DNA from: Mobula hypostoma
Taxonomy: Eukaryota
Direction of reading: 5' to 3'
Length of the DNA: 64,000 nt
NCBI RefSeq assembly: GCF_963921235.1
Contig: NC_086107.1
Location: 100,380,001-100,444,000 of the forward strand
Both the position numbers and the translations under genes were made by a program. Below are positions 3,525 through 62,437 of this stretch, piece after piece. The notes beneath the pieces were generated by a model. It had not been told where the DNA came from. It saw nothing but the letters and a program-made list of their open reading frames with translations, and searched no databases. Each line of letters begins with the position of its first letter. Position 1 is the first letter of the stretch.

Positions 3525-4804
3525 AAGTCTATTATAGTGCAAAGAGGTCAAAATTACGTTGATGTATTTTGGCATTGCTTTTCTCCACAGGTGTATACAA
3601 TCTGTTTTGCCTACCTTGAGAACTCCTACTCCTACTTTCACAGCTCAGATCCACCTTTTCGAAAGAGTTAACACCCAGTCTTGCAAATATAAGCTCCAGG
3701 TTCTTATCTACATCTCTGTGCATCTTTTGCAGTGCTTCCTCAACATTTTTCTTAATATGCCATTTAGAACATTACACAATACTCTGAGTGTAACCGAACC
3801 AAGGTTTTGTTTGGTTTATCATTGTTTTATCATTACCTCTCTATTTTCAACCCTGGCCCAACAGTGTGGTTTGCTTGTAAGTCCTTGATAACCTGTAGGT
3901 TACACCTTGCGATTTAGATGTAAAACCAGAAAATAATGGAAATGCCCAGAAAGCCAAGTGGGAGCTGAATAAAGAGAAACCAAAGTCAATGTTTCAGGTT
4001 CCGGTCCCTTCATTCATGATTTGGACGATAATGAAAAGAGACTGCAAATGAGGAAAGTTCTAACCCAGGGCTTTGACCTGAAGCATTAACTCTCTTTTTC
4101 CACAGATGCCACCTGTGCCTCCAGATTCTCCATTTCCATTATGTTATGTTGGTCCTCCCAGATCTTCATATTCCTGATCCCTATTTGGATATTCCTTTGT
4201 CAGGGAGTCATAGAGCATACAGCACAGATACAGGCCCCTTATCCCTCCAAACCCATCCTGACTTTTTTGCCCACATTAAGACCATGTCCTTCTACACCTT
4301 GTCTATTTAGCTGACCATCTAACTGCTTCGTAAACATTGCTGTTGTTGGCCAGATCAGAGATGGTGACAAACTGGCAGATAGGAGAAGGGCAGAAAACCT
4401 GGTTGAATGGTGCCAAAACAACAACCTCTCACTCAACGTCAGCAAAATCAAAGAGATGAAGGAAGAAGCTGAAGGTCCATGAGCCAGACCTCATTATGTG
4501 ATTGGAGGGGACAAGTGTCGGTAAATTTATCATATCGGAGGATCCATACTGGGTCATAAGTGCCATCACAAAGAAGACACAATAGTGCCTCTACTTTTTT
4601 TTTTGAAGTTTTCAAAGATTCAGCATGTCAGCAAAAACTTGGACTAAATCCTATAGATGCACAGTGGAGAGTATCTTTGCCGATTTCATCGTGGCTTGGT
4701 ATGGAAACACCAATGCCTGGGAACGGAAAAGTCTACAGAATGTGGTGGAAACAGCCCTGTCTATCATAGGCAAAGCTCTCCCCAACAGAGAGCATATTTA
4801 GAAG

Positions 4805-5368
4805 GAGTATTGCGTACAGTTTTGGTCTCCAAATTTGAGGAAGGACATTCTAGCTATTGAGGGAGTTCAGTGTAGGTTCATGAAGTTAATTCCGGGATGG
4901 CGGGACTGTCATATGTTGAAAGATTGGAGCGACTGGGGTTGTATACTCTGGAATTTAGAAGGATGAGAGGGGATCTGATTGAAACATATAAGATTATTAA
5001 GGGATTGAACATGCTAGAGTCAGGAGACATGTTCCCAATGTTGGGGGAGTCCAGAACCAGAGACTACAGTTTAAGAATAAGGGGTAGACCATTTAGAACG
5101 GAGTTGAGGAAAAACTTTTTCACACAGAGGGTTGTGGTTCAGTGGAATGCTCTGCTTCAGAAGGCAGTGGAGGCCAATTCTCTGGATTATTTCAAGAAAG
5201 CATTAGATAGAGCTCTTAAAGATAGCAGAGTGAAGGGAGATGGGGAGAAGGCAGGAAAAGGGTACTGATTGTGGATGATCAGCCATGATCACAGTGAATG
5301 GTGGTGCTGGCTCGAAGGGCTGAATGGCCTACTCCTGCACCTATTATCTATTGTCTATTGTCTATTGA
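4805..5368 (+). mobile_element. CR1 LINE 3' fragment, nested in a Rex1/Babar-like LINE remnant (about 4320-5828)
   Basis: ORF 4897..5268 CR1 C-terminus; (CTATTGT)n tail. Confidence 0.88.
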
Positions 5369-5888
5369 GTACTGCCAAAAAAAATCAGCATCCATTATCA
5401 AGGACCATCCACGCAAAGCTCTGTTCTCATTTCTACCATGGGGCAGAAGGGACAGGAGCCTTAGGTCCCACCAGGTCAGGAACAGTTATTACCTTACAAT
5501 CATCAAGCTCCTGAACTCATGTGAATAACTTCACTCACCTCAACTCTGAACTGATTCCACAACCAATGGACTCACTTTCAAGGACTCGACAACTCATGTT
5601 CTCCAGATTATTTATTTATTTTTATTTTTATCTTTTATTTTAAAGGAAGAATGTGTCTTCCTTTGCACATTGGTTATTTGCCATCTTTGCTTCTGTATAA
5701 TTTTCCATAAATTCTATTGTGTTTCTTTATTTTCCTGTAAATGCCTGTAAGAAAATGACTCTCAAGGTGGTATACAGTGACGTATATGCACTTTGATAGT
5801 AAATTTACATTGACTTTTGACTTTGATTTTCCACTACTTTCTCTGGAGTCGTTGATATCATACACTCAGTGCCCACTTTATTAGGAAC

Positions 5889-6739
5889 TGTCATGTGTGA
5901 AGCCAAGCAGAGCTGCAGAACGGATGATGTTAATGAGAGAGATAATGACAGACAACGGAGAGCCATTCAAAATGCTAATAAGAGAGAAGAGAGAGATAAC
6001 GAGAGAGAGAGACACATAACTCAGATGTTGGCGTCTGCCACAGACAGTTTGCTTTGAACCTGAACTGTTCATTAACAATCCTGTTGAGACAACAGGAAGT
6101 GTGAAGTTTGATGGACAGGTGATACTCCATCAGGGGGATAAAAATAATGGGTTTGCTAAGGCACGACACACGCCACAAGACCCTGGAAAGAGCAGTGTGC
6201 CCCACAGGTTGGTGGGAGTTTGGAGGACCGATTCGCGGGAATTGGTCAGAGGCTCACAGGGTGTAAAGGTACGACCGGTGGGGACCTGTTGTGTGTCCGT
6301 CCTTGCCTGGGTGCCCGGTTCACCACAGAAGAACGGTCGCATCCAGAACGGAGAGGTCACAGTCGGTGACCACAGCGGGATCAGAAGGCATCAAAAGGTT
6401 TGCCTGAAACCAGCTGTATCTCTCACTCTCTCTCTCTCCCCCCAACGGTACAACAACAGCGATTACTTCGAACTACACTAGACTGAACTGAACTCTGCAT
6501 CACCTTAAGACTGATCATTTTACCCCCAGACTGCAATAGAGCTTGGTTGATTCCTATTACCCTATTTCTGTGTATATGTGTGTAATATCATTGCTAACCT
6601 GTTACATTTATATCCTTGCGGTTAGTATACTGTATTACTTACTTTTGTTAATAAAACTTTATTAGTTTCTAGTAATCACGGACTCCAATCAGTGGTCCAT
6701 TTCTGCTAGTTTGACAACCCAATTACGGGGTACATAACA
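5889..6739 (+). mobile_element. Solo LTR (about 850 bp)
   Basis: TGTCATGT...ACATAACA ends; GAAC/GTAC 4-bp TSD; AATAAA near 6650; homologous to 43545-44395 in opposite orientation. Confidence 0.8.
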
Positions 6740-7290: not shown

Positions 7291-7919
7291 AAACAACAGG
7301 AATTCTGCAGATGCTGGAAATTCAAGCAACACACATCAAAGTTGCTGGTGAACGCAGCAGGCCAGGCAGTATCTATAGGAAGGGGTACAGTCGACGTTTT
7401 GGGCCGAGACTCTTCGTCAGGACTAACTGAAGGAAGAGTTAGTAAGAGATTTGAGTGGGAGGGGGAGGGGGAGATCCAAAATGATAGGAGAAGACAGGAG
7501 GGGGAGGGATGGAGCCAAGAGCTGGACAGGTGATAGGCAAAAGGGATATAAGAGGATCACGGGACAGGAGGTCCGGGGAGAAAGACAAGGGGGGGGGGAG
7601 CCCAGAGAATGGGCAAGGGGTATAGTCAAAGGGACAGAGGGAGAAAAAGGAGAGAGAGAGAAAGAATGTGTGTATAAAAATAAATAACAGATGGGGTACG
7701 AGGGGGAGGTAGGGCATTAGCAGAAGTTAGAGAAGTCGATGTTCATGCCATCAGGTTGGAGGCTACCCAGACGGAATATAAGGTGTTGATCCTCCAACCT
7801 GAGTGTGGCTTCACCTTTACAGTAGAGGAAGCCGTGGATAGACATATCAGAATGGGAATGGGATGTGGAATTAAAATGTGTGGCCACTGGGAGATCCTGC
7901 TTTCTCTGGCGGACAGAGC
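7291..7919 (-). mobile_element. Penelope-like 3' fragment (GIY-YIG end + pLTR)
   Basis: ORF 7717..8022 ends ...FRLGSLQPDGMNIDFSNF; same pLTR as the 44.6 and 57.5 kb copies; hammerhead remnant at 7389-7424 (GAAA mutated to AAAA). Confidence 0.9.
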
Positions 7920-8039: not shown

Positions 8040-8628
8040 TCAAGGCCTTGGTAAGACCACACCTGGAGTACTGTGTGCCATTTTGATCCCCTAATCTGAG
8101 GAAAGACATTCTTGCCATAGAGGGAGTACAAAGAAGGTTCACCAGATTGATTCCTGGGATGGCAGGACTTTCATATGAAGAAAGACTGGATTGACTAGGC
8201 TTATACTCGCTGGAATTTAGAAGACTGAGGGGGGATCTTATTGAAACGTATAAAATTCTAAAGGGATTGGACAGGCTAGATGCAGGAAGATTATTCCCAA
8301 TGTTGGGGAAGTTCAGAATGAGCAGTCACAGTTTGAGGATAAAGGGGAAGCCTTTTAGGACCAAGATGAGGAAAAACTTCTTCACACAGAAAGTGGTGAA
8401 TCTGTGGAATTCTCTGCCACAGGAAACAGTTGAGGCCAGTTCATTGGCTATATTTAAGAGGGAGTTAGATATGGCCCTCATGACTAAAGGGATCAGGGGG
8501 TATGGAGAGAAGGTAGGTACAGGGTTCTGAGTTGGATGATCAGCCATGATCATACTGAATGGCGGTGCAGGCTCGAAGGGCCGAATGGCCTACTCCTGCA
8601 CCTATTTTCTATGTTTCTATGTTTCTAT
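8040..8628 (+). mobile_element. CR1 LINE 3' fragment
   Basis: KALVRPHLEYC...; ORF 8267..8530; (TTTCTATG)n tail. Confidence 0.88.
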
Positions 8629-9727
8629 TAAGAGATTGTGGATGTCACTAATGAGCCACTATTGAGAATTAGAATTTATTTAAGTCTTACAATCATCCCA
8701 CAATGTGAGGGAGTAAAAATCTTTGCGTTATGACTCCATTGCAACATAAGACATGTGAATTTAAATGTCTAACGGCTTGTAGAAAGAAGCTGTTGGTCCT
8801 GGCGTTAATGCTGCGGTACCATATGCCCGATGGGAGCAGCTGAACCAGTTTATGGTCGGGGTGACTGGTGATCCCGATGATCTTCCAGGCCTTCTTTATG
8901 CGCCTGCTGCTGTAAATCTCCTCAATGGAGGAGTTCATGTCCACAGATGCGCTGGGCTGTCCGTGCCACTCTCTGCAGTGCCCAGTGCGCAAGGTTGGCG
9001 CAGTTCCCATGCCAGGCGGTGATAATGCCAGTCAGGATGCTCTCAATTGTTGCCTGTCTCCAAAAAGCTACATACATGCAAGTAGGTTGATGTGATGGTG
9101 GGGGGCGGGGGTCACCTGAATATATTGCTACAATGAGGTGCTCTGCTATCCATTTTAGAGAGCAATTAAGAGCAGAGGGCCTTGGCTCCCTAGCATGCCA
9201 AACCAGGAAAGAGCAGCAGATTTCTTGCCCTAAAGGATGTAAGTGAACCAGACACACATCACCCAGTATTTCCATGGTCACCCTTAATTTCCACCCTTAA
9301 TTAAAAACAAATGTTAATTCCCCAGTGGAATTCAAATTCGTGTCTCCAGATCATTTTCCCAGGCCTTTGAACTGTTGGTCCCGTAATTTAACCTGCTACG
9401 CCGCTGTTCTATTTGTTATGCTAATTACATGCTTATTTTGCAAGTTTATTAATACCCTTTTGTTGTCGCCTTCATTTTTGAATATTCCCCAATTTTGTGT
9501 TACTTGCAAATTTAGCAGATGAATTCTGATTACAAAGACTGAAACATTAGCATAAATTATGAACGGCAGTGGCTCGCATGCTGATCACACGTGACCCCAC
9601 CTCCAACCTGACCACACATTCCGCCTCTATACACCCAGTCCAGTTGACTCTGCATTCTTTCAAACATCAAACTGTTAAGTGGCATCTCTGTGGAATTCTG
9701 TTGTAACTGCTACCTGACACACTTTAC

Positions 9728-9877
9728 TAACTTTTCCTTCAGTTAGTCCTGACGAAGGGTCTTGGCCTGAAACGTCGACTGTACCTCTTCCTAGAGATGC
9801 TGCCTGGCCTGCTGCGTTCACCAGCAACTTTGATGTGTGTTGCTTGAATTTCCAGCATCTGCAGAATTCCTGTTGTT
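9728..9877 (+). mobile_element. 150-bp Penelope pLTR-end insertion
   Basis: Matches the pLTR 3' end; 9-bp TSD ACACTTTAC at 9719-9727 and 9878-9886. Confidence 0.88.
9745..9780 (+). ncRNA. Minimal type I hammerhead ribozyme motif, intact core
   Basis: AGTC CTGACGA AGG GTCTTGG CCT GAAA CGTC/GACT: stem I AGTC/GACT, CUGANGA box, stem II AGG/CCT, GAAA, palindromic ACGT stem III; predicted cleavage after 9776. Confidence 0.8.
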
Positions 9878-12800
9878 ACACTTTACATTTGCTGATTCTC
9901 CCCCTGACCATTGTGGGTTGGTAGGTTAGTTGCCCACAGCACATTTCCAAAGTGTAAAGGTGAGTGGTAGAATCTGGAAGGAGATAATGGGAATCTGGAA
10001 TAAAATGGGATTTGTGTAAGGTTCTTGCACGGTCGATATTGTCCAGTGGGCCAAAGGGCTTGATTCTCTGTTCTATATCTTGATACCATTCATTCATTCA
10101 TTATGAGCCGTGGGCGATCAGGGTCTTGCCATTATCATGGTCGTTCTTGGCAATTTTTCCCTACAGAAGTAGTTTGCCATTGCCTTCTTCTGGGCAGTGC
10201 CTTTACAAGACGGGTGAGCCCCCCATTACCAACACTCTTCAGAGATTGCCAGTGGTCGTGTAACCAGGACTTGCGATAGGCACCGGCTGCTCATACGACC
10301 ACCCACCACCCACTTCTCGTTGCTACCATGGGGAGGAGGTGCAGGAGCCTGAAGATACGGAAGGAACAACTTCTTCCCCTCTGTTGTCAGATTTCTCAAC
10401 CCTTGAACTCCACTTTGTAACTCCCTTCTTTTTGTGCTACATATTTATTTAGTAACCTGTAGTTACTTTATGTCTTTGCGCCGTGCTACTGCCACAAAAC
10501 ATGAGATTTCACGTCGTTTAAGACACTAATAATAAGCCTAACTCCGATTCTTTATCGGTTGTGCTTCATTCACCGCTGCGACCAAGTGATGAATTGATTC
10601 TGGCATCTTCGCCCTTCCTTTCCATTCCCGAGGAAGGGTTCGAGCCGAGTGTTTATTCACTTCCTTGCTTTCGCAGTAGCTTTTCACTCCCCAGTCCTGC
10701 CGGACGGTATGAACTTCCCCTTGCTGAAAATCTTTACATAGAAAGGAGTCTTGTACATACCGTTGAAGCTATATTTCTGAATTCCCCTTGCACATCTCAA
10801 TGGCTTAATTGATTTCAGCGTGATTAAAATCTCCCTTGATTATTATTTCATGCTAGTTTTTACAATTTCCCCGATTCCTTCACATATTTCTTAATTTCTC
10901 TCTCAATTTTAGGTGCCCCATAGTCTAATGTGATCGATTCCTTTATTACCTTTTATTTTCCACTTGGATTCTATTCGTGTGCTACACATGACTACATCAC
11001 TTCTCTCCTGTCAGAGTGTATTTTCTAATAACCACAGCTGTTTTAACTCTCCTTTTATCCACTCAATCTTTGCAGAGTGTTGTTCAGTATGTCTGGCAGT
11101 GGTTAATTTACAGCCTGACATTTTGATGCTCCTGCCTCAATTATTCCTGTTATAGTTCTACCTTCCAGTTTTATTATAGACTTTGCACATTAGTGTATAG
11201 AATAAAAACCGCAATAAAATGAAGAAAGATTCGGTTCTTTACGACGCCTTTCGTGACCTCAGGTCAGCTCAGCGTATTTTACAGCCAATTAAACACTTTT
11301 TGAAGTGTTGACTCTGTGGTACTGAAAGTCACACACCCTGACACACAGTCTCACAAAAAGTAGTGTCAGAACAAGCACATTATTTACTAAAGTATTGACA
11401 GCATAAAACTTGACTAGGACACTTCCATATGTTTCTTAATAATAGTGTAAAATGCTCTTTTCCGTCTGGCTGAGAGATGTAAACCCTGGATTAAAGTCTG
11501 ACGTTATGAATAATCGAACATCTACAGGGGCAGCCCAGGTCACTTGTTCGAGTCTCTGGAAGGGGACTTAGAGACATGAGTTCTCCCACTTAACCGCAGT
11601 TTGTGGTGATGGAACCACTTTCATGATATTAAATGATTAACGAAATAATGGAACCAGGGCAGAAAGGGCCAGGTGTGTGCTATCAGGATGGCTTCACACT
11701 CAGCCACGTTGGCAATAAATATTCTGTTTGCCTTTTTAATTGCCTGCTGCGCCTGCATGCTAACTCTTTTCTGTTTTAAGTCCAACAGTAGCCACATCCT
11801 TGAATCGTTTGTCGTTAATGTACTGTGTCATGTAACATGGCTGATCATGATCTTTCCATGACCACGGCTGTTCTTGACAATTTTTTTCCACAGAAGTGGT
11901 TTGCCATTGACCTCTTCTATGCAGTGTCTTCACAAGACCGGTGGTAGTTACTGTCTGTTACGCCACTGGATTTAGGGCAGCAACGAATGTCCTCATCTCT
12001 GTCTGTCCTTGGCTAACACATAGACGTAGGATTCTTCATTGCCGTTTCCGTAACGATTTTTTTTTGACCAATCAGGGTTGTTAGCCCTGAGTTGAACTCT
12101 CAAAACCTGAAAGGACAGGTTGACCACTCTTAGTATGGCCTCTACCCTTTGACCTGTTTGGCATGGGTGACCTTACCGAGAGTCGAAGCACAATTCCAGC
12201 CAACACAGCTCTCTGGATCACGGAGAGACCTGTTTTGTAAAGGCATTGCCCAGAAGAAGGCTGGGGTCACACTCAAGCCTCCAAACCCTACGACAAGGTT
12301 GTGGTCCTCCTGGAGGTTACAAGGTGGGTGACCCCAGCCATTACCAATACTCTTCAGAGATTGTCTGCCTGGTGTGAGTGGTCGCATAATCAGGACTTGT
12401 GATATGCACTGGCTGCTCGTACAACCGTCCACCACCTGTTCCCATGGCTTCACGTGACCCCAATCAGGGGGGTTAAGCAGGTGTTACACCTTGCCCAAGG
12501 GTGACCTGCAGGCTAGTGGAGGGAATGAGCACCTTGTACCTCTTTTGGGAGAGACATATCTCCATCCTGCCACCCAACATCTTTGAACATCTGCTTTTAT
12601 AGAATATCCGCTGTATTATTCTTCCTGTGAAAGAATAACCTCACATTTTAGAGTCCTTGGCTCATCCTACACAAAATGGCGGTCATGGTGTTCGTCATGT
12701 TCATACCGACTTCTTGGCCCACCAACACTAATCCCATCCGCCCATGTTAGGATCGTATTCTTCAATGCCTTGTCTATTTAACAACCTCCCTAAAACGATC

Positions 12801-12954
12801 CTTAAATGTAGCAATTGCAATGGGTTCCCCTACGTTCTCTGGCAGCACCTTCCAGATATCAAATATTCTCTGTGAGGAAAAGCTTACCCCTCCAATCCCC
12901 CTTTCAGACTCCTTCCTCCCACCAGAAATCTGTGCCCCTTACACTGGGAAATAT

Positions 12955-13268
12955 AGCAACACACACACACACATAAAATGCTAGAGCATCTCTGCAGGGC
13001 CGGCAGCATTGACGGAGAAAAAAACACAATCGACGTTTCGGGCTGAAACCCTTCGGCAGGACTGGTGAAAAAAAAGATGAAGAGTAGATTTTTCACTGGA
13101 GATAAAAAGCTGAGGAGTAGCTTTTTCTCTCCAGTCCTGCCAAAGGGTTTTGGCCCGAAATGTCAACTGTATTTTTTTCCACAGATACTGCCTGGCCTGC
13201 TGAGTTCCTCCAGCATTTTGTGTGTGCTGCTCGGATTTCCAGCATCTGCAGATTTTCTCTTGTTTGTG
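12955..13268. mobile_element. Inverted pair of Penelope pLTR fragments (older subfamily)
   Basis: Minus copy with hammerhead remnant at 13028-13063 and plus copy at 13133-13168; both have CTGCC in place of CTGAC. Confidence 0.8.
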
Positions 13269-13996
13269 ACTGGGGAATATCTCTTGGCCATCTATACCTC
13301 TGATAAACTTATAAACTACAATCAGTTCACTGCTCCAGGAAAAACAAGCCCAGAGTATCCAATCTCACCCCACAGCTAAAGTCCTTCAATCCAGCAACAT
13401 AGAACATAAGATCATAAGACATAGGAGCAGAATTAGGTCACCTGGCCCATTGGGTCGGCTCCTTCCATTATGGCTGATTTATTATCCCTCTCAACCCCTT
13501 ACTGCTGCCTTCTCCCCATAACCTTTGACACCCTTTCTAATCAAGAACTTATCAATCTCTGATTTTAATATACCCAATGGCTTGGCCTCCACAGCCCTCT
13601 GTGGCAATGAATTCCACAGATTCACACCCTCTGGCTAAAGAAATTCCTTCTCAACTCTGTTCCGAGGCTGAGCCCTCTTTTGTCCTACACTCCCCTATTA
13701 TAGGAAACATCCTCTCCACGTCCACTCTGTTGAGGTCTTTCAATATTTAATAGGTTTTAATGAAATCTACAGGGTGAATTCTATCATATTATGATCACTG
13801 CCTCCGAAGGCCTCCTTTACCTTAAGCTTCCTAACAACACCCAGTCCAGAACTACCTTTGCCCTGTGGCTCGACCACAAGCTGCTCTAAAACGCCATCTT
13901 GCAGGCAGCCTACAAGAATGCAGCATCAATATCATTTTCCCAATCTACCTACATACTGAAAACCCCCACAACTAAAATAACATTTCTCTCTTTCAC

Positions 13997-14304: not shown

Positions 14305-15029
14305 CTTTTCACTTGCCTTTTCTATCTCTTGTTACAATTTGTACCCCATATCCTGGCTACTGTTTGGAAACCTGTACTGTATATAACTCCCATCAGGGTC
14401 TTTTTACCCTTGCAGTTTCTTAACTCTACCCACAAAGATTCTGCATCTTCTGATCCTACGTCACCTCAATCTAAAGATTTGATTTCCATAAGACATAGGA
14501 GTAGAATTAGGCCATTTGGCCCATCGAGTCTGCTCTACCATTCCATCATGGCTGATTTATTGACAACCACTATGATCTTTGATGCCCTTACTAACCCAGA
14601 ATTTATCAACCTTCACTTTAAATATACCCAATCGCTTGGACTTCACGGATGATAATGGTAATGAATTCCACAGATTCACCATCCTCTGGCTCAAGAAATT
14701 CCTCTTCCTCTCTGTTCTAAAGAGATATCCTTGCTTTCAGAAGCTGTGCCCTCTGGTCTGAGTTTCCCACGATAGGAAACATCGTTTCCATGTCCACTCT
14801 ATCTAGGCCTTTCAATATTCGACAGGTTTCAATGAGATCCCCCCACTCCCCATTCTTCTAAACTCGAATACAGGCCCAAAGGCATCAAAAGCTCCTTATA
14901 TATTAATCCTTTCATTCCTGGAATCATTTTCATGAACCTCCTCTGGACTCTCTCCAATGCCAGCACATCTTTTCTTAGACATCACTCCAAGTGCAGTCTG
15001 AGCAATGCCTTATAAAGCCTTATTAAAAT

Positions 15030-15165
15030 GCCTTGTAAGTCCTGAGGAAGGGTCTTGGCCCAAAACGTTGACAACTTACTCTTTCCCATAGATGCTGCCT
15101 GATCTGCTGAGATCCTCCAGCATTTTCTGTGTGTTGCTTTGGATTTCCAGCATCTGCAGATTTTT
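15030..15165 (+). mobile_element. Penelope pLTR fragment nested in CR1
   Basis: AGTCCTGAGGAAGGGTCTTGGCCCAAAACGTTGAC followed by the pLTR tail ...CCAGCATCTGCAGATTT. Confidence 0.75.
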
Positions 15166-19519: not shown

Positions 19520-19785
19520 GGCTGGAAATCCAGCGTAACACATACAAAATGCTGGAGGAACTCAGCAGGTCAGGCAGCATCAATGGGAATGAATAAACTG
19601 TCGATGTTCTGGGCGGAGACTCTTCACCAGAACTGGAAAGGAAGGGAGCAGATGCCAGAATAAGGCAAGGGGAGGGGAAGAAGTACAAAGTAGAAGGTGA
19701 TAGGTGAAGCCAGGTGAGTGGGGGAGGGAAATGAAGTAAGAAACTGGGAAGAGAGCTGGCCTTTTCCACCTATCACCTCCAGCAT
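19520..19785 (-). mobile_element. Penelope pLTR fragment, older, with a short inverted end
   Basis: pLTR tail, degenerate hammerhead near 19599-19634, and an AGGTGATAGGTG / CACCTATCACCT inversion. Confidence 0.7.
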
Positions 19786-33667: not shown

Positions 33668-33748
33668 ATAAACCTCTTTCATCGCAACTCTAACTCACCG
33701 ACTACGGGTGGTTATTTTAGCGCTGTGTGTAGCACACCGCTACAGTAT

Positions 33749-43023: not shown

Positions 43024-43046
43024 TGAGTTCTGTTAAACAGTCTATA

Positions 43047-47362: not shown

Positions 47363-47935
47363 TCAGAATCAGAATCAGGTTTATCATCACCAGCATGTGA
47401 CGTGAAATTTGTTAACTTAGCAGCAGTAGTTCAATGCAACACATAATCTAGCAGAGAGAGAAAAAAATAACAAATAAAATAAAACAATAAATAAACAAAT
47501 CAATTACGTATATTGAATAGATTATTAAAAATGTGCAAAAACAGAAATACTGTATATTTTTTAAAAAGTGAGGTAGTGTCCAAAGCTTCAAAGTCCATTT
47601 AGGAATTAGATGGCAGAGGGGAAGAAGCTGTTCCTGAATCGCTGAGTGTGAGCCTTCAGGCTTCTGTATCTCCTACCTGATGGTAGCAGCGAGAAAAGTG
47701 TATGCTCTGGGTGCTGGAGGTCTTCAATAATGGACGCTGCCTTTCTGAGACACCGCTCCCTAAAGATGTCCTGGGTACTTTGTAGACTAGTGCCCAAGAT
47801 GGAGCTGACGAGATTTACCACCTTCTGCAGCTTCTTTCGGTCCTGTGCAGTAACCCCTCCATACCAGATGGTGATGCAGCCTGTCAGAATGCTCGCCATG
47901 GTACAACTATACAAGTTTTTGAGCGTATTTGTTGA
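47363..47935 (-). mobile_element. Rex1/Babar-like LINE 3' fragment (related copies near 8660-9050, 46245-46640, 60340-60955)
   Basis: ORF 47606..47941 SILTGCITIWYG...LLPSGRRYRSL...NSFFPSAI; (TCAGAA) tail. Confidence 0.75.
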
Positions 47936-48473
47936 TGGCATTAAAACAAAGTGTTTTCACTCTCAGTACATATCACAATAATAAACCAATTACCAAAAGA
48001 TACATAATGCTTAACGGTAGGACAACCTCACTCTCATCACACAACTTGTCATTACTTTTGCCTAGAATATCTCTTGATTCTGAAAGTATTTTATCAGCTG
48101 AACCAGCCTGCAGTCAATTAAATACATGATGTATTGTTGGCAGTTGATGGCGAATGTGCAAACACGATTAATTGCAGCAATGTTTAAGCACCAAAATCAA
48201 GAAGGACTGTTCTAGAATGGAGACACAGGAGACTGCAGATGCTGGAATCCTTTTTGTTTTGGAATCTAGCAGCCCCTGCCTTAGCCTCCCCCTTTCCTCT
48301 CTATATTGGCCATCCTCTCACTCTGCTTTTTGCCCTGATGCAGGTTCACGCCTGAAAACTCCACCCATGCCTTTCCTCTACAGATGTTGCCTAACTCACT
48401 GAGTTCCTCAAGCAGTTCTTTTCTTAAATTGTTCTAGATAATCATGGCTTCAGCTAGACAATGTTTCACTTAC

Positions 48474-48543: not shown

Positions 48544-49789
48544 CTGAGAAATCAAGTTTTAAAAAATGCAATGTTTAGTAAAGGGAAGTGTTAAACTAGT
48601 TAATATTCTGCTCATGCACAAGAATGATGATATAAAGGAAAACCATGCACTATAATTGAGAAAAGGATCAGGAAGTTAAAATTTTATAAAAAGAGCCTAC
48701 ATTGACGAGGAACATAAGAGACTGCAGATGCTGGAATAAGGAGCAACAAACTATCTGCTGAAGAAACTCAGCAGGTCAAGTAGCTTGAAGCAAGGAGGCC
48801 AGGAAACATTTTGCTTTGCATAGTGGTCAACAAATGGAATAAGGGGATAACCCATTGATCTTATTTAAGAATAAGGTGTTCAAAGATCAAAGTAAATTTA
48901 TGATCAAAGATGAGCCTTGTTGTGACAGTGCTTCTTGTAGAAGTGCTCAGTGTGGTCATTTATATTCCATAAAGATGAAATCAAATGAACATTCAAAGTT
49001 CTGACAGCAGAACCCAACTCTGATATTATGCTCTATTCAATTTTTATCCTTGTAAAGAAAAAAAAATACATTTTGTTCCCAGTTTTACTAAAATTAACAA
49101 AAGAAATTCTGAAATTACTCCAAGACCAGTGAAACAGATTGTGTTAAGCCAATTTATCAACTCCCCTGTATGTTGAAACCGCAGGCTAAAAGTATCAGAA
49201 ATCCAAGCAACAGGCAGTGAAACTGGACATGCAACAAATTTTAGATGTTTGAAATCTGAAATAAAAACAGAAAATGCTAGGAACAGTTAGCAGGTCAAAT
49301 GACATCTGTAGGCAGAGAAACAAAGTTAACATTTTGGATCAATGACCCTTCATCAAAACTCCAACTCCGTCTTTCTCTTCACAAATGTCAGGTACTGTAC
49401 CTCCAACAATTTTGCTCCTAAAGCACTTTAGTCTGTAACTTGTGTCCTGCAGCTCATTGCAGTTTGATCTGACTAGTCTAATCGATGATTATACAATAGC
49501 TTTAAGTTGCCGGGTCCAGGGAAGGAAGGACAGGGCAATTTGGATGGTGCACCCATGGGATTGCCTTACACTAATGACACTATTGAATGCAAATCAATGA
49601 AACCTGAAGTCACACTTTACTTGTCTGTTCTCCTCAGCCAACAGAGCAAATTGTAAGTCCTTTTCTGGTCTTGGCACCAAAGGTTACAATAAATGCAAAC
49701 AGAATGGATTTAAAATATTTGCACAATGTTCATCTAAGCTGACGCCCAAGGTCAAAGCTCAAGTACTTGAACAAACAGCAACAACTTAC

Positions 49790-52800: not shown

Positions 52801-53039
52801 CTCCAGGAAACTTCTCAGAGACAGCAAAGTGCCAGATCACTCAATTGTCCCCAAAAACACACCATCAAACTGTAGATCACAGACTGTAACAGTATCAGAA
52901 ACACATTTAAAAGAAAAAGATGAGGTAAAAGAAGTGAAAGAGACCATTTCATGGACCATCTGGAAAAAGTCACCCATGGTAGTGTTGTTTGCCAGCATCA
53001 TTTGCTTCTGGATACCCTCACAAATGCATGGCCAGATGA

Positions 53040-53155
53040 TGGAAATCCAAACCAACACACGCACAAAATGCTGGAGGAACTCAGCAGGTCAAACAGCATC
53101 TAGGGAAATGAATAAACAGTGGACGTTTTGGGCCGAGACCCCTCTTCAGGATACT
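53040..53155 (-). mobile_element. Penelope pLTR fragment with degenerate hammerhead (53118-53153)
   Basis: Minus strand CTGAAGA GGG GTCTCGG CCC AAAA CGTC. Confidence 0.7.
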
Positions 53156-53789
53156 GAAGAGTTCTTACATCTACTCTTTGGCCAACTACCTTCAATTTAT
53201 GTTCTTTGCTTATGCCTCCTCTGCTGCTGCAACTAATTTACTCTTACTTATCCCATCAAACTCATTATTTTCTTCTGCTTGAAATTTAATATTGATCATT
53301 CCACTAGAATTGAGTCCAATTATCTTTCTGGAATCAAATTTGGATCCTTGTGGTCTGCTATGTTGAACTTCAACATGTCTATAGCATTGCACTATTTCCA
53401 CAACTCTCTTAACCTTTTGGTTCTGGTAACCTCACGATGACCGGTTCCTAGGTACCTTCCTTTATCTCTCTAGAGGTATTTATCACTTATCCCAAGCTTG
53501 TCGAGAAGTGATGTGCCTTGGAACAGTATAACAAAATTGTGCTCACATTAGTTGCAAAATAACATACCCAGTCTGATCCAGCCTCTGACTTCACTGACTT
53601 CTGATAGACTCACAAAGCAATTTACACTAGTGAGCACAATTTCTATCTTTCAAATATTGGTCCATGCTTCTGGATTACTATTCTTGTACCATGACCTCAA
53701 CATCATTTTACAGAAGGACTTGTGCACACCATCCAATGTGATAACTAGGTTGAATGCTCGGGTGAAAGAGTAAAAAAAATGTGACCTAC

Positions 53790-54437: not shown

Positions 54438-55965
54438 GCTGTGGAGATTGCGGAGGCATTAGCGATGATCTTTCAAGTCGATAGATTCTGGCATGGTTCC
54501 GGAGGACTGGAAGATTGCAAATGTCACTCCGCTATTTAAGAAGGGGGCAAGGAAGTAAAAAGGAAACTATAGACCTGTTAGCTTGACATCGGTGGTTGGG
54601 AAGTTGTTGGAGGTGATTGTTAAGGATGAGATTACAGAGTACCTGGAGGCATATGACAAGATAGGCAGAACTCAGCATGGATTCCTTAAAGGAAAATCCT
54701 GCCTGACAAACCTATTACAATTTTTTGAGGAAATTACCAGTAGGCTAGACAAGGGAGATGCAGTGGATGTTGTATATTTGGATTTTCAGAAGGCCTTTGA
54801 CAAGGTGGCACACGAGGCTACTTAACAAGATAAGAGCCCATGAAATTACGGGAAAGTTACATACGTGGATAGAGCTTTGGCTGATTGGCAGGAAACAGAG
54901 AGTGAGAATAAAGGGATCCTATTCTGGTTGGCTGCCAGTTACCAGTGGTGTTCCACAGGGGTCCGTGTTGGGGCTACTTCTTTTTACATTGTACATCAAT
55001 GATTTGGATTATGGAAGAGATGGCTTTGTGGCTAAGTTTGCTGACAATACGAAGATAGGTGGAGGGGCCGGTAGTGCTGAGGAAACAGAGAGTCTGCAGA
55101 GAGACTTGGATAGATTGGAAGAATGGGCAAAGAAGTGGCAAATGAAGTACAATGTTGGAAAGTGTATGGTTATGCACTTTGGCAGAAGTAATAACCGGGC
55201 AGACTATTATTTATATGGGGAAAGAATTCAAAGTTCTGAGATGCAACGGGACTTGGGGGTCTTCGTACAGGATACCCTTAAGGTTAACCTCCAGGTTGAG
55301 TCGGTAGTGAAGAAGGCGAATGCAATGTTGGCATTCATTTCTAGAGGAATAGAGTACAAGAGCAGGGGTGTGATGTTGAGGCTCTATAAGGCGCTGGTGA
55401 GACCTCACTTGGAGTACTGTGGGCAGTTTTGGTCTCCTTATTTAAGAAAGGATGTGCTGACGTTGGAGAGGGTACAGAGAAGATTCACTAGAATGATTCC
55501 AGGAATGAGAGGGTTAATATATGAGGAACATTTGTCCACTCTTGGACTATATTCCTTGGAGTTTAAAAGAATGAGGGGAGACCTCATAGAAACATTTCGA
55601 ATGTTGAAAGGCATGGACAGAGTGGATGTGGCAAAGTTGTTTCCCATGATGGGGGAGTCTAGTACAAGAGGGTATGACTTAAGGATTGAAGGGCGCCCAT
55701 TCAGAACAGAGATGCAAAGAAATTTTTTTAGTCAGAGGGTGGTGAATCTATGGAATTTGTTGCCACGGGCAGCAGTGGAGGCCAAGTCATTGGGCGTATT
55801 TAAGGCAGAGATTGATAGGTATCTGAGTAGTCAGGGCATCAAAGGTTATGGTGAGAAGGCGGGGGAGTGGGACTAAATGGGAGAATGGATCAGCTCATGA
55901 TAAAATGGCGGAGCAGGCTCGATGGGCCGAATGGCCAACTTCTGCTCCTTTGTCTTATGGTCTTA
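54438..55965 (+). mobile_element. CR1 LINE, about 1.5 kb of RT and 3' end
   Basis: QHGF.KGKSCLTNL, YLDFQKAFDKV, SGVPQGSVLG, KFADNT; stop and frameshift present; (TCTTATGG) tail. Confidence 0.93.
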
Positions 55966-57522
55966 TTAAAGGGCCTTCGGCCCACTATGTCGTGCCGACC
56001 ACGTAACCTACTCTAGAAACTGCCTAGAATTTCCTGAGTGCTTAGCCCTCTATTTTTCTAAGTTCCATGTACCTATCTAAGAGGCTCTTAAAAGACCCTA
56101 TTGTATCTGCTTCCACCATCGCTGCCAGCATGCATTCCACACACCCAGAACATTCTCTGTGAAAAACTTACTCCTGACATCCTCTTGGTACCTATTCTCA
56201 AGCACCTTAAAACTATGCAAGTACAAACATGTGTCCTGATTTTGCAGATTTTTCTGTGCTGCCTTACAAAAAAATAACATGTTGGAAGTTTGTCTCACCA
56301 AGCATTAGCCACACCTCCATCATCATGTTAATCAACACAAATAAACCCATGACTCCCTTTCAAGAACTCTTCATCTCATATTTTTGAAATACATTGCTTA
56401 TTTATTTATTTATTCTCCTTTGTATTTGTCCAGTTTGTCTTTTGCACGTTAGTTGTTTGTCCGTCCTGTTGGTGCGGTCTTTCATTGATTTATCGTGTTT
56501 CTTGGATTTACTGAGTATTCCCGCAAGAAAACAAATCTCTGGGTTGTGTATCACAACATATATGTACTTTGATAATAAATTTACTTTGAACTTCAGCTAA
56601 TTAATTCCATTTGTAATCACTTAGCCTTTCTGGGTAGACTCAAGGATACCAACGGGCGCATTTTTATTTAAGTAATAGATTACTGTACCTTAGAGCACTT
56701 AATAAACTCCACACACAGTTTTTTTTAAAGTTGGTCGTACTTTAGAATTGCTAGTGGATGGTTGCAAATACACAAAATGTTGATTATTTTTAAATAATCT
56801 ACTAATTTTCAACTGCGTTATCAAGGCAGCACTGGGCTGTGATTCAAATACAAGAAGAAATATTTTTAAGATATTATGTAAGATTTTATGTTTTGTGATA
56901 CTTGTGTCTCAACAAGGAAGTGAGAGAGACAATAGCAACCTTTGTACCAATTAGCCGGATGTTTGTTGTTGGCTACACACTAGAACTTATTATTAAGGAC
57001 ATGCTGGGAGATGCTTAGAAAATCATAAAGGGCAGATTCCATAACTAGGAGATAATTGTTTTGGGATAGGAGGACTGAAATGAAGAGGAGAGAGATGTGG
57101 ATGCTCAGTTATTGAAGGTATTCCAGAGGTGGTTGACAGTATTTCCTAGAATATGCACAGAAGGCAGGAATGGGGGGCTAAGGCACAGGACTGGCCGTGA
57201 TTTTATTGAATAGTAGACAGCTCAAGGGCTACTTATGGCCTATTTCCATTTCCAATTCCTCACCTTCTTGTATCTCAGGTGTTGTTTTGTTTTACACCAC
57301 GAGAGCACACTAACTTGCACTTCAATTCATGCCAGAACTTTTCAGAGATAAGATTTGCCTGAGTCAGTGGAATTTAATGATGATTTTTTCTTTACTGTTT
57401 GTACTTGTCTCTGGTTCTGTGCCTTGAATACTGCAGCACAAAACCACAATTGATAGTTTGATATTTTCCATCTTGCATCACTGGGTGAAATGAGGAGCAG
57501 GAGCCACGACAACTAAATATGA

Positions 57523-59820
57523 ACATGAGAAAATCTGCAGATGCTGGAAATTCAAGCAACACACACAAAATGCTGTTGAACGCAGCAGGCCAGGCAGCAT
57601 CCATAGGAAGAGGTACAGTCGACGTTTCGGGTTGAGACCCTTTGTCAGGACTAATGGAAAGAAGAGATAGTAAGAGATTTGAAAGTGGGAGAGGGAGGGG
57701 GAGACCTGAAATGATAGGAGAAGACAGGAGAGGAAGGGGATGAAGCTAAGAGGTGGGAAATTGATTGGCAGAAGAGATACAAGGCTGGAGAAGAGGGAGT
57801 ATCAGAGCACGGAAGGCCGAGGAAAAAAGGGGGAGAGGAGCACCAGAGGAAGATGGAGAACAGGCAAAGAGTTATGGTGAGAGGGAGAGAGAGAAACAAA
57901 CAAACAAATAAATAAATAAATTTTAGGGATGGGGTAAGAAGGGGAGGAGGGACATTAACGGAAGTTAGAGAAATCAATGTTCATGCGATCAGGTTGGAGG
58001 CTACCCAGATGGAAGATGTTGTTCCTCCAACCTGAGTGTGGCTTCATCTCGATAGTAGAGGAGGCCGTGGATTGACATATTGGAATGGGACTGGGACGTG
58101 GAATTAAAATGTGTGGCCATTGGGAGATCCTGCTTCCTTTGGCAGACAGAGCGTAGGTGTTCAGCGAAGCGGTCTCCAATCTGCATCAGGTCTCACCAAT
58201 ATATAGAAGGATACACCGGGAGCACCAGACACAGTATATCACACCAGCAGATTCACAGGTGAAGTATTGCCTCACCTGGAAGGACTGTCTGGGGCCCTGA
58301 ATGGTGGTGAGAGAGGAAGTGTAAGGGCATGTGTAGCACTTGTTCCACTTGCAAGGATAAGTGCCAGGAGGGAGATCGGTGGGAAGGGATGGGGGGACGA
58401 CGAATGGACAAGGGAGTCGTGTAGGGAGCAATCCCTGTGGAAAGCAGAAAGTGGGGGGGGGGAGGGAAAATGTGCTTTCTGGTGGGATCCCGTTGGAGAT
58501 GGCGGAAGTTAAGGAGAATTATATGTTGGACACTGAGGCTGGTGGGGTGGTAGGTGAGGACAAGAGGAACCCCATCCCTAGTGGGGTGGCGGGAGGATGG
58601 GGTGAGAGTAGATGTGCGTGAAATGGGAGCGATGGAAGGGAAGCCCCTTTCTTTAAAAAAGGAAGACATCTCCTTCGTCCTGGAATGAAAAGCCTCATTC
58701 TGAGAGCAGATGCGGCAGAGACGGAGGAATTGAGAGAAGGGGATGGCACTTTTACAAATAACAGGGTGGGAAGAGGAACAGTCCAGGTAGCTGAGAGAGT
58801 CCGTAGGCTTATAGTAGACATCAGTAGATAAGCTGTATCTAGAGATAGAGACAAAGAGATCAAGGAAGGGAAAGGGGGTGTCAGAAATGGACCAGGTAAA
58901 TTTGAGGGCAGGGTGGAAGTTGCAGGCAAGGTTGATGAAGTCAGGAAGCAGCACCAATGCAGTCGTCGATGTAGTGAAGGAAAAGTGGGGGACAGATACC
59001 AGTATAGGCTTGGAACATGGACTGTTCCACATAGCCAACAAAAAGGCAGGCATAGCTGGGACCCATACAGGTGCCCATGGCTACACCTTTAGTTTGGAGG
59101 AGATGGGAGGAGCCAAAGGAGAAATTATTAACAATAAGGACTAATTCCACTAGACGGAGAAGAGTGGTGGTAGAGGAGAACTGGTTAGGTCTGGAATCCA
59201 AAAAGAAACGAAGAGCTTTGAGACCTTCCTGGTGGGGGATGGAGGTATATAGGGACTGGACATCCATGGTGAAAATAAGACGATGGGGCCAGGGAACTTG
59301 AAATCATTGAAAAAATCCAGAGCATGAGAAGAGTCATGAACATAGGTGGGAAGGGATTGAACAAGGGGGGATAAAACCGTGTCGAAGTATGCAGAAATGA
59401 GTTTGGTGGGGCAGGAGCAAGTTGAAACAATGGGTCTACCCGGACAGGCAGGTTAGTGGATCTTGGGTAGGAGGTAGAAACGGGAAGTGCGAGGTGTGGG
59501 AACTATAAGGTTGGTGACAGTGAATGGGAGATCCCCAGAGCTGATAAGGTCGGTGATGGTGTGGGAGACAATGGCCTGGTGCTCCTTAGTGGGGTGATGT
59601 TCGAGGGGTAAATAAGAGGAGGTATCAGCGAGTTGTCGCTGTGCCTCGGCAAGGTAGAGGTCAGTACGCCAGACTACTACAGTGCCCCCCTTATCAGCGG
59701 GTTTTATGGTAAGGTTAGGATCGGCACGGAGGGAGTGGAGAGCAGAGCTTTCAGAAGGAGTGAGGTTGGAATTGGAACAAGGTGTGGTGAAGTTGAGAAG
59801 GTTGATGTCCCGTCAGCAGT
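57523..59820 (-). mobile_element. Penelope-like element, 5'-truncated: RT + GIY-YIG + pLTR with hammerhead
   Basis: MDVQSLYTSIP, QTKGVAMGT and YIDDC (PLE RT); VYYKPTD; GIY-YIG; frameshifted. TSD TAAATATGA at 57514-57522 and 59821-59829. Confidence 0.92.
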
Positions 59821-59871
59821 TAAATATGATCTGTTTTAACTTGCTTGCACTTGCATAACTCCATTACATAC

Positions 59872-59935
59872 CACATTCGCTGGCAGATCCTCCAACCAGC
59901 TGGAAATATTGCTGTGCAATCTTCAGGTGCTCCCT
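59872..59935 (-). CDS. TTC26: IFT56/TTC26 exon REHLKIAQQYFQLVGGSASEC (64 nt)
   Basis: AG/GT boundaries, phase 0-1; matches human RDHMKIAQQFFQLVGGSASEC. Confidence 0.95.
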
Positions 59936-62244
59936 CTGTGAACAAACAAAGAGACTTTGTCAGAATTTCTGTGCAGTACTTATCACTAAGTACTGGTCAA
60001 TTTAACAATAGATGGAATGCTGAATAAAGCTGGTGACATAAAACCAGCTTCTTCCCCCAGGCTGTGAGACCACCCTGCTACTACCTAGTACACATTATTT
60101 ATGACAGTGCCTGTAGCATTACATTGTGGTATATTTAACTATATGTTGTAAATACACTTTATATCAACTTGTACATCTACAGAATAATATGTCAATATTG
60201 TGTTAATATATTAAGTGCTGCATCTGATATACAGTACTGTACAAAAGTCATGTAAAAATTCTGTAAAGCAAGATTGCTTTCAAAAACACTGAAATTAAAA
60301 GCTTCTAAATATAAAAAAACTATAAAGAGCAGTAAATAGAATCAGAATCATTATCATTGGTGTGTGTCGTTAAATTTGTTAACTTAGCAGCAGCAGTTCA
60401 ACGCAATACATAATATAGAAAAAGAAAATAATAATAATAAATAAGCAAATCAATTACAGTATACATGTATTGAATGGATTAAAAATAATGCAAAAAACAG
60501 AAATAATATTATTAAAAAAGTGGTGTTCACTGGTTCAATGTCCATTTAGGAATTGGACGGCGGAGGGGAAGAAGCTGTTCCTGAATTGCTGAGTGTGTGC
60601 CTTCAGGCTTCTGTACCTCCCACCTGACGGTAACAGTGAGAAAAGGGCATGCCTTGGGTGCTGGAGGTCCTTAGTAATGGACGCTGCCTTTCTGAGACAG
60701 GAGACACTTGAAGATGTCCTGGGTACTTTGCAGGCTAGTACCCAAGATGGAGCCGACTAAATTTACAACCCTCTGCAGCTTCTTTCAGTCCTGTGCAGTA
60801 GCACACCCCCCATATCAGACAGTGATGCAGACTGTCAGAATGCTCTCCACAATACATACAACGAAGTTTTTGAGTGTATTTGTTGACATATCAAATCTCT
60901 TCAAACTCCTAATGAAGTATAGTTGCTGTCTTGCCTTCCTTATAACTGCATCGATAAGTAAAAATCTAAACAGTAAATGACTAAATCAAATCAATATTTG
61001 GTATGTCCACCCTTTGTCTCTTAGATACACTGTCGTGCAGTTTTATAAGAAAATTAGCTGGGTTGTTCCAAGCATTTGGAGAACTTGCCATAGTTCTTCT
61101 GCAGACTTTGGTTGTCTCATTCGTATCTGTCTCTCCGAGCAATCGCAGACAGCCTCAGTGAAGTTTAAGATCATGGCTCTGTGGAAGCCATACCATCTGT
61201 TGCAGAACTCCTTGCCCTTCTTTTTGCTGAAGATGGTTTTTTATTACCTTGGGTGTGTATTAGGGGTTATTGTCCTGACGCAGAATGAAGTTGGGACCAA
61301 TCGCATGCCCCCCTCATGCTATTGCATGATAGATGAGAATCTGCTTGTACTTCTCAGCATTGAGGATTCTATTAATTCTGACCAGATCACCAACTCCATT
61401 TGCAGAAATGCAGCTTCAAACCTGCAGAGAACCTCCACTGTGCTTCACTGTTGGCTGTAGACACTCTTCCATGTACTGTTCTTGAGCTCTTCTACAAACT
61501 GCCTCCAAAAATTTCAAATTTTGACTAGTCAGTCCAGAGCACTTGCTGCCATTGTTCAGCACCCCAGTCCTTGAGTTTCTATGCATAGCTGAGTCTCTTG
61601 GCTTTGCTTCCCAGACATCCCACCTCTCCTGGAAGTTCCGGGAGTCTCCCACATATCGGTAGTGGCTCTCTGACGCCCGAAAATTATATACAATATCCCA
61701 GAAATAGATTTTTTTGAGAGGGAGAGAGAGAGAGGGAGAGCGAGCATCCTGATTGGTCTCTCTTCGTGCTAACAGTGGTCCTCAACCACCGGGCGAGGAA
61801 ACAATATGATTTGGCGATATGAAACGATATGAGTCAGCTGCACCTTTCCTCATTCCCTGTCATGCACTGTTGAATTTTAACGCACGCGAGGTCACCAGTG
61901 AATCAAGACGTGCAAAGGAATGGATCAGTGACCTATTTGTGAATGTCCCCGGTGAATCATCCATGTCAGCGTGGGAAGAAGATCAATTCCTTGAGCTTGC
62001 AAATGACAGCGGACTGAAAAGTATGTTTGACAGAACATCTCTGCCGGCATTCTGGATCACAGTCAAGGCTAAATATCCTGAGATAGCCACGAAAGCACTG
62101 AAAACATTGCTTCCATTTCCAACATCATATCGCTGTGAAGTGGAGTTTTCTGCAATGAATGCTACGAAAACTAAATTGCGGAATAGACTGGACATAAGGA
62201 ACCCCCTTCGAGTATCGCTGTCTCCCATCACCCCTCAATAGGAC

Positions 62245-62437
62245 AGTAAACAACACAAACAACAGGAATTCTGCAGATGCTGGAAATTCAAGCAACACAC
62301 ATCAAAGTTGCTGGTGAACGCAGCAGGCTAGGCAGCATCTCTAGGAAGAGGTACAGTCGACGTTTCAGGCCGAGACCCTTCGTCAGGACTAACTGAAGGA
62401 AGAGTAAGGACTGTACCTCTTCCTAGAGATGCTGCCT
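62245..62437. mobile_element. Short Penelope pLTR insertion with a 29-bp inverted arm
   Basis: Minus-strand pLTR 62257-62408 followed by plus-strand GACTGTACC...GCTGCCT (62409-62437); TSD (CCT)CAATAGGAC at 62233-62244 and 62435-62446. Confidence 0.88.
62355..62390 (-). ncRNA. Minimal type I hammerhead ribozyme motif, intact core
   Basis: Minus strand identical to the 44655-44690 copy. Confidence 0.8.

Follow-up and report, generated by a model that had tools for sequence, protein, structure and literature searches.

A stretch of 64,000 nucleotides of Mobula hypostoma DNA (contig NC_086107.1, positions 100,380,001 to 100,444,000; called the window throughout) is scattered with 3'-end pieces of a Penelope-like element (PLE) that carry, in various states of decay, a minimal type I hammerhead ribozyme motif. 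The motif is 36 nt long and reads AGTC-CTGACGA-A-GGGTCTYGGCCT-GAAA-CGTC/GACT, the slash marking the predicted cut. Twenty such fragments lie in the 64 kb, which corresponds to about one per 3.2 kb, and three of them are fully intact. Their positions, strands and the searches that support them are as follows, with nhmmer values referring to a profile built from the 161-nt tail of the family.

3981 to 4011, minus strand: degenerate hammerhead remnant (3' two-thirds), head-to-head with 4055 to 4115; its reverse complement reads ...GAAGGG..CCTGAAAC.T.GACT
4055 to 4115, plus strand: degenerate PLE tail fragment that begins at the hammerhead (nhmmer E 9.8e-4, profile 27-89)
7292 to 7919, minus strand: 5'-truncated PLE 3' fragment of about 630 bp (self-BLAST 93% to 44557-45190; nhmmer 3e-55)
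7389 to 7424, minus strand: hammerhead of the preceding copy, with G12→A and a helix II change
9728 to 9877, plus strand: solo 150-bp PLE tail copy with an intact hammerhead at 9745-9780
12943 to 13076, minus strand: older-subfamily tail copy, left arm of a head-to-head pair; hammerhead 13027-13062 with A6→C (nhmmer 3.4e-13)
13132 to 13264, plus strand: older-subfamily tail copy, right arm of the same pair; hammerhead 13133-13168 with several core changes (nhmmer 3.9e-28)
15035 to 15163, plus strand: older-subfamily tail copy; hammerhead 15038-15073 with G12→A and C17→T (nhmmer 5.4e-25)
18778 to 18872, plus strand: degenerate older tail copy (nhmmer 1.8e-11)
19510 to 19635, minus strand: degenerate older tail copy (nhmmer 1.1e-17)
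34362 to 34438, minus strand: degenerate tail fragment (nhmmer 5.8e-6)
42844 to 43030, minus strand: 188-bp PLE tail copy; hammerhead 42941-42976 inactivated by G8→C (36-mer search, self-BLAST, nhmmer)
44555 to 45406, minus strand: PLE 3' fragment with a GIY-YIG open reading frame (ORF) at 44988-45626, 3' untranslated region (UTR), intact hammerhead 44655-44690 and tail to 44558
45412 to 46197, plus strand: inverted head-to-head partner of the preceding copy, with a GIY-YIG ORF at 45246-45884 whose translation has a CX4CxxC linker (self-BLAST)
48320 to 48409, plus strand: degenerate tail fragment (nhmmer 3e-5)
48721 to 48810, minus strand: degenerate tail fragment from the cut-site region onwards, newly recognised here (nhmmer 9.1e-6, profile 54-148)
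49289 to 49360, minus strand: degenerate tail fragment (nhmmer 7.9e-5)
53033 to 53159, minus strand: older-subfamily tail copy; hammerhead 53116-53151 with core changes (nhmmer 1.1e-17)
57522 to 59303, minus strand: longest PLE remnant of the window, with a reverse transcriptase (RT) remnant at 58941-59303, decayed ORF, 3' UTR, hammerhead 57617-57652 (G8→A) and tail (self-BLAST to 44555-46197)
62258 to 62408, minus strand: short tail copy with an intact hammerhead at 62355-62390 and tail, left arm of a fold-back insertion
62409 to 62435, plus strand: 27-nt inverted arm that starts exactly one base past the predicted cut site, newly recognised here (BLAST 100% over 29 nt; nhmmer)

Exact and near-exact searches with the 36-mer returned 9745-9780 (plus) with no mismatch, 44655-44690 and 62355-62390 (both minus) with one loop change each, and 42941-42976 (minus) with two changes that include G8→C, while the expectation from 100 shuffles was 0.00. 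A custom descriptor of the minimal hammerhead (CTGANGA, GAAA, U-H, and minimum lengths of 3 bp for helix II and 4 bp for helix I), scanned over both strands, matched only the three intact copies in the window, with a mean of 0.02 in mononucleotide shuffles. The tail profile found 19 fragments at E<1e-3. When 17 hammerhead regions were aligned, the core changes proved to be mostly CpG transitions such as G8→A, G12→A and C17→T, and they are seen at 7389(-), 13028(-), 13133(+), 15038(+), 42941(-), 53116(-) and 57617(-).

A preliminary description of this DNA, made from the letters alone, had listed the same three intact motifs and the same seven altered ones, apart from a start at 53118 that is better placed at 53116. 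Its halved motif at 46180(+) belongs to the 45412-46197 copy, which is cut off within loop 2 at 46197, and it put the density at about one motif per 4 kb. The degenerate copies that it suspected are present at 18779(+), 19599(-), 34396(-), 48335(+) and 49325(-), as is the one near 3985, a minus-strand remnant that faces an unlisted plus-strand piece at 4056. The site near 10620 was not upheld: it resembles the motif only vaguely by eye and gave no nhmmer match at E<=10. The reported duplication around the 150-bp copy is present as a 9-bp direct repeat, ACACTTTAC, at 9719-9727 and 9878-9886. Thirteen nucleotides upstream of this duplication lies a further tail-like fragment at 9683-9706 (about 19 of 25 bases by eye), which would fit the insertion of PLEs beside pre-existing tails and is too short for scoring.

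The 150-bp repeat is the 3' end common to the longer copies at 7292-7919, 44555-45406, 45412-46197 and from 57522 onwards, as revealed by self-BLAST. The two GIY-YIG frames pass the Pfam cut-off of 22.6 bits (44988-45626, minus, 22.8 bits; 45246-45884, plus, 23.2 bits), and the translations contain YIDD (58941-59303), GVIY...LLYIGET and a CX4CxxC linker, which reads CKRNKCYTC and precedes the GIY-YIG domain. The homologue P0010 has RVT_1 followed by GIY-YIG, both below the Pfam cut-offs, and proteins of two ray species, 77-95% identical, are the nearest in the database. Judged by its sequence, the carrier is an endonuclease-positive PLE in which the RT is followed by a C-terminal GIY-YIG domain. 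The linker between RT and endonuclease is tentatively of the Neptune/Nematis type, as the accessible part of PMC8557442 assigns a CX2-5CxxC motif at this place to the Neptune and Nematis PLEs. The hammerhead lies in the 3' UTR, about 300 nt past the stop codon. Of the two alternative 3' ends, the one that lacks the 35-nt tail follows 65-69 nt further downstream and the one that has it about 100 nt downstream. This position, with GIY-YIG and RT remnants upstream on the same strand, agrees with the preliminary attribution of the motif and its palindromic ACGT to the terminal repeats (pLTRs) of Penelope elements.

In the intact window hammerheads helix I has 5 bp and helix II 4 bp by the descriptor scan, and an unpaired A follows the GA of the core on the 5' side of helix II. 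A palindromic ACGU (15.1-16.1) takes the place of the helix III loop, and two units can be drawn paired as a double hammerhead. Among 30 young copies position 11.1 carries U in 18 and C in 12, and the older subfamily has C there. The majority sequence of the young family and that of six older window copies agree at 34 of 36 positions in the hammerhead, as against 4 of 17 upstream, 46 of 63 downstream and 25 of 35 in the tail (Fisher p = 4.7e-4). The conservation of CUGANGA and GAAA thus extends beyond that of the flanks, and one of the two differences in the hammerhead is CpG decay in the old copies.

The motif is not peculiar to this region. A 31-mer of it with three degenerate positions has 54,653 strict matches in the 3.48 Gb assembly (3.476 Gb) and its reversed control has none, which bears out the earlier suspicion of a very large family. 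A CpG-free 25-mer further along the tail has 45,592 matches. Since the intact motif averages about one per 64 kb and the window with its three copies holds about three times that, the window is typical of the genome within a factor of three.

The anatomy of the copies was read against a ruler, the copy 44555-45406 on its own strand (852 nt), on which the ORF stops at about 419, helix I starts at 717, the CTGA of the core at 721, and the predicted cut falls after 748, so that 749 is the first base past the cut. The sample was drawn from the first places of the 25-mer search and comprises 75 arms at loci L031-L100; as the 25-mer lies downstream in the tail, it was not selected for the presence of a hammerhead. 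The 3' ends fall at 848-852 in 46 arms, at 815-817 in 18, and between 817 and 848 in the other 11. The 5' ends (by BLAST) lie beyond the ruler in 11 arms, at 4-619 in 12, at 620-697 in 10, at 698-713 in 12, at 714-726 in 18, at 727-748 in five, at 749-753 in one and at 754-790 in six. Short arms, starting at 620 or later and 230 bp or shorter, make up 52 of the 75.

An inverted head-to-head arm adjoins 33 of these 52 short arms. The 35-nt tail is found on one arm only in 32 of these 33 cases, and a direct repeat of at least 7 bp, typically 10-15 bp, surrounds the whole pair in 23 of 30 pair entries, a number that counts both arms of some pairs. A pair that is flanked as a whole by one duplication implies a single insertion event. 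In the window the pairs lie at 3981-4115, 12943-13264, 44555-46197 and 62258-62435, the last enclosed by a 12-bp duplication (62233-62244 and 62435-62446), while 9728-9877 is solo; solo short copies in general are flanked by duplications of 10-15 bp. Most of the very short copies are therefore single-event fold-back pairs, with junctions clustered in the 5' half of the hammerhead. The earlier view that the family consists largely of short units was right as to length and needs refinement as to form, as most of these units are head-to-head pairs rather than solo 150-bp copies.

This anatomy matches the published insertion signatures of PLEs. The accessible part of PMC8557442 describes frequent 5' truncation, a 5'-truncated copy lying alongside in inverted orientation, and a tail of 30-40 bp on one side, and the assayed element of PMC11167929 has two adjacent internal start sites for reverse transcription, whose spacing equals the tail, with both target strands cleaved and extended. 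A second apparent hotspot of 5' ends and fold-back junctions is seen at ruler 215-229 within the GIY-YIG coding region (window position 7919; loci L020, L027, L045 and L009).

The best explanation overall, to which we assign a probability of about 85%, is that the window copies are dead-on-arrival 3'-end copies of an endonuclease-positive PLE, that their abundance stems from target-primed reverse transcription, fold-back pairs included, and that the hammerhead is not needed to make the template. Reverse transcription would begin at the two 3' sites and proceed 5'-wards. Because these sites are near the hammerhead, nearly every insertion, however short, would include it, which would in turn account for more than 54,000 intact motifs in the genome. 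Many short insertions would be fold-back pairs from one event: in the published model both DNA strands are cut and extended, and two cDNAs, or one that has snapped back, would be joined by 0-4 nt of microhomology. The ribozyme itself would be active in source-element transcripts alone, either by forming a domain-swapped dimer or with the aid of the element's protein, as may be supposed by analogy with the literature.

The place at which copies begin bears directly on the role of cleavage. Genome-wide strict junctions, in which all four bases preceding an element position mismatch the element, number 399 at 714, 3,992 (raw) at 717, 2,430 at 718, 653 at 721, 445 at 749, 187 at 750 and 253 at 753. 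At 717, 46 of the first 100 places represent the differing upstream sequence of the older subfamily, so that true junctions number about 2,150. Of the first 100 places at 749, 18 are due to microhomology with helix I (TCAG) and 17 to an internal deletion (TCCT). Three solo copies begin at G718 immediately after their duplication. There is thus a sharp peak of 5' ends at the first two bases of helix I, A717 and G718, and no convincing peak at the cut site; the distribution of 5' ends, which the preliminary description had proposed to examine, is non-random. As the 5' ends of copies do not mark the cut site, hammerhead cleavage is probably not needed to make the template. A "fossil" of cleavage, in the form of 5' ends piling up past the cut, was considered and is not claimed, since the roughly twofold excess is small and largely accounted for by microhomology and deletions. 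Inverted arms that start exactly past the cut do exist at 62409-62435 in the window, at L089 and as partners of two arms in L060 and L083. The exact start in L089 is accounted for by a 4-nt helix I microhomology, none is visible in the window copy 62409-62435, and the 62409 arm and two sample arms are left over after microhomology and deletions have been accounted for.

The 717/718 peak most likely reflects a discrete RNA 5' end. Our best guess is that transcription starts there in the pLTR, because an initiator-like YYAGTCC is kept at this place in both subfamilies, and according to the accessible part of a review the promoters and start sites of PLEs are located in the pLTR (PMC6765202). Directly upstream of helix I there is a TACTAAC branch-point-like sequence with a pyrimidine tract and AG (ruler 697-714; window 9725-9742), which recalls the Penelope intron of Drosophila virilis, whose 3' end abuts helix I in the account available from PMC4209133. 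Spliced templates were rejected as a cause of the peak, as the flanks of solo copies that start at 716-718 are unrelated and share no upstream exon; no copy with a spliced structure turned up. It is conceivable, if somewhat doubtful, that the hammerhead forms the 5' end of a discrete short RNA that runs from A717/G718 to the two RT start sites, is reverse-transcribed as a unit and has given rise to about a quarter of the intact motifs, a fraction estimated from the strict junctions at 717 and 718 scaled by the chance that four random bases all mismatch.

Several observations weigh against the explanation by dead-on-arrival copies of a hammerhead-bearing PLE, or against parts of it. On the side of the ribozyme, the hammerhead is no better kept within the young family than its flanks (non-CpG mismatch of 3.7%, as against 4.2% downstream), which is expected of dead copies and makes conservation within the family uninformative. 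No compensatory change was seen in any helix among 72 descriptor matches in 273 kb of loci, some of which overlap one another, and all the matches represent one sequence family; nor were double helix changes seen in these loci and the window. The hammerhead models of Rfam gave no match at the gathering score or at E<=10, which is unsurprising, as the motif lacks helix III. Pairing of the core GACG with CGUC gives an inactive hairpin that is predicted at -11.0 kcal/mol versus -5.6 to -7.0 for a hammerhead-like monomer, and the double hammerhead is weak at -11.5 kcal/mol versus -30 to -32 for the extended duplex; naked RNA is accordingly predicted to prefer the inactive hairpin. On the side of the carrier, the ORF at 58941-59303(-), upstream of the hammerhead on the same strand, scores 28.8 bits with Pfam RVT_1, below the cut-off of 29.6, and the clade call is tentative because it depends on one linker motif. 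No full-length tandem copy of the form pLTR-ORF-pLTR was found in the window or the 101 loci, so that the architecture of the source element is inferred; one long copy, traced 2.5 kb upstream, terminates in an inverted arm with its ORFs broken.

These observations on the ribozyme agree with the literature on PLE hammerheads. Lunse, Weinberg and Breaker have reportedly dealt with dimeric cleavage of hammerheads. Metazoan PLE hammerheads cleave poorly and only as dimers, so far as the accessible part of PMC4209133 describes them, and the hammerhead of a PLE from the anole needs the protein of the element, is dispensable for insertion in vitro and has no RNA-seq ends at its cut site (PMC11167929). 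Another reading is that in this family the motif no longer cleaves itself in vivo and is either passively carried or kept for another role: its bases might begin a transcript or form its leader, bind a protein or open an ORF. This we consider unlikely. It would account for the lack of a clear excess at the cut site (445 at 749 versus 187 and 253, with about 35 of the first 100 places accounted for), for the greater predicted stability of the inactive hairpin and for the U at 11.1, which in 18 of 30 main-family copies replaces the usual G10.1-C11.1 pair. Hammerhead mutants of the anole PLE still insert in vitro, no RNA-seq reads of that element start at the cut site (PMC11167929), and PLE clades without hammerheads proliferate well, as stated in the accessible part of PMC8557442. 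The conserved block, moreover, overlaps YYAGTCC and in the older subfamily also the AUG of CUGAUGA, with a frame open to the 3' end that lacks the tail. Yet all core nucleotides, both helices, the unpaired base at helix II and the palindromic ACGU agree exactly with the PLE hammerheads published in the accessible part of PMC4209133, the two subfamilies agree at 34 of 36 positions here as against 65% elsewhere, and related PLE hammerheads do cleave, as dimers (PMC4209133, same part) or with protein (PMC11167929). With regard to reading frames, the AUG in the CUGAUGA of copies with T at N7 opens a 31-codon frame that is closed by TGA at the start of the tail (ruler 724-819; window 9752-9847), which resembles the anole PLE, whose ORF starts within the hammerhead (PMC11167929); in the main family an in-frame ATG lies at ruler 769.

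The preliminary description had left open whether the short units are extreme 5' truncations or a SINE- or retrozyme-like family. A separate non-autonomous family would consist of 100-150-nt units headed by the hammerhead that derive transcripts from copies of their own and depend on the PLE enzyme, acting in trans, for mobilisation. The sharp peak at 717/718 (about 2,150 and 2,430 versus 399 at 714 and 653 at 721) would suit such a family, short units with clean duplications are common, and a 2026 preprint, in its accessible part, derives animal retrozymes from the pLTRs of PLEs (10.64898/2026.07.22.740005). Tandem arrays are absent, however: within 1 kb of the places in two lists of 100 each (the hammerhead 31-mer and the tail 25-mer), same-strand neighbours number 0 and 1, as against 6 and 7 head-to-head neighbours, among the places listed. 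At five variable positions of the tail, the same haplotypes occur among long copies and among short ones (TAGCG in eight long and 13 short, CGTTG in three long and 10 short, in a small sample of 69 arms), 5' ends outside the peak are scattered over 620-790, and the short units use both 3' ends and the one-sided tail of the long copies. No Pol III-type head turned up, although no search was aimed at one. As tandem arrays are lacking and haplotypes are shared, a SINE- or retrozyme-like lineage of its own is not supported, and we regard it as quite improbable. Of the two possibilities, the one that stood is that of 5' truncations and by-products of an autonomous PLE.

The arrangement itself was already published for PLEs in 2014, and the insertion signatures were described in 2021 and 2024. 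The minimal hammerheads that Cervera and De la Pena described in metazoan pLTRs (2014, PMC4209133, accessible part) are likewise of type I with CUGANGA and GAAA, a helix I of 4-5 bp, an unpaired base between A9 and 10.1 and a palindromic 15.2-16.2 in place of a helix III loop. They too are located in PLE terminal repeats, mostly as single motifs of truncated copies with some close pairs on opposite strands. Helix II is 3-4 bp here, whereas in schistosome families it has 7-8 bp; the main family here has U at 11.1; the intact motifs number at least 54,653, compared with about 4,000 in the coelacanth and about 9,000 in Xenopus; and one sequence family dominates instead of many variable ones. In the green anole's Poseidon element PAc (Frangieh et al. 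2024, PMC11167929), too, the hammerhead precedes two adjacent internal RT start sites by some tens of nucleotides, and these sites are as far apart as the genomic tail is long. The same geometry is mirrored here by 3' ends at 815-817 and at 848-852, together with a 35-nt tail on one side only. Both target strands are used in PAc, and its AUG lies within CUGAUGA as in our older subfamily, while the main family, with C at N7, has no AUG in the core. The two differ in clade by the linker motif, CX4CxxC of Neptune/Nematis type in the present element, which is known from sequence, whereas PAc was assayed.

The complex tandem and inverted units described by Craig et al. (2021, PMC8557442, accessible part) share the high 5' truncation, the inverted 5'-truncated copy at the 5' end and the one-sided tail. 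By contrast, the fold-back form is quantified here in very short copies (33 of 52 arms), and clustering of junctions in the 5' half of the hammerhead is a feature for which no statement was found in the accessible part of that paper. The non-LTR retrozymes of animals (Cervera and De la Pena 2020, PMC7229834; Li et al. 2026, preprint, accessible part) resemble the units here in their type I hammerheads, proposed PLE origin and dispersed monomeric derivatives, but they form head-to-tail tandem repeats that give circular RNAs, whereas tandem neighbours are essentially absent here and, unlike retrozymes (PMC7229834), the units end at the 3' ends of the PLE itself.

The window also contains repeats of other kinds. 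An unrelated long terminal repeat (LTR) retroelement occupies 29615-33694, with 244-bp direct repeats at 29615-29857 and 33451-33694 that are 92.6% identical, and its interior holds RT, RNase H, integrase zinc-finger and integrase core ORFs on the plus strand in four stop-to-stop frames. A different retroelement family is represented at 54749-55876(+) (RVT_1, 47.1 bits), with related pieces at 4804-5369, 8042-8632, 13406-13763 and 14486-14977. A further unrelated repeat family is found at 25150-26111, 41487-42481, 46247-46629, 47365-47935 and 60338-60956.

When Rfam is searched permissively, the centres of two fold-backs, 13028-13168 and 45370-45502, are scored as microRNA precursors (MIR399 at 35.9 bits and MIR173 at 39.9 bits), with neither match anywhere near its gathering score. 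Fold-back pairs of PLEs thus imitate microRNA precursors and could be mis-annotated as microRNA genes; if transcribed, they would form long hairpins.

What is new here is the scale of the family, the origin of short copies as single-event fold-backs, the 717/718 peak of 5' ends and the missing peak at the cut site. The family is among the largest single families of intact hammerhead motifs documented in a vertebrate-type genome, and the copies themselves show how so many motifs arose. If the short RNA proposed above exists, the capped leader of PLE transcripts would contain the ribozyme, and cleavage there would take away the cap together with the first 32 nt and could switch a transcript between translation and use as a template. 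To judge from the genomic record, it is not hammerhead cleavage that defines the template of retrotransposition, and the 717/718 peak together with the missing peak at the cut site bears on what the hammerheads of PLEs are for.

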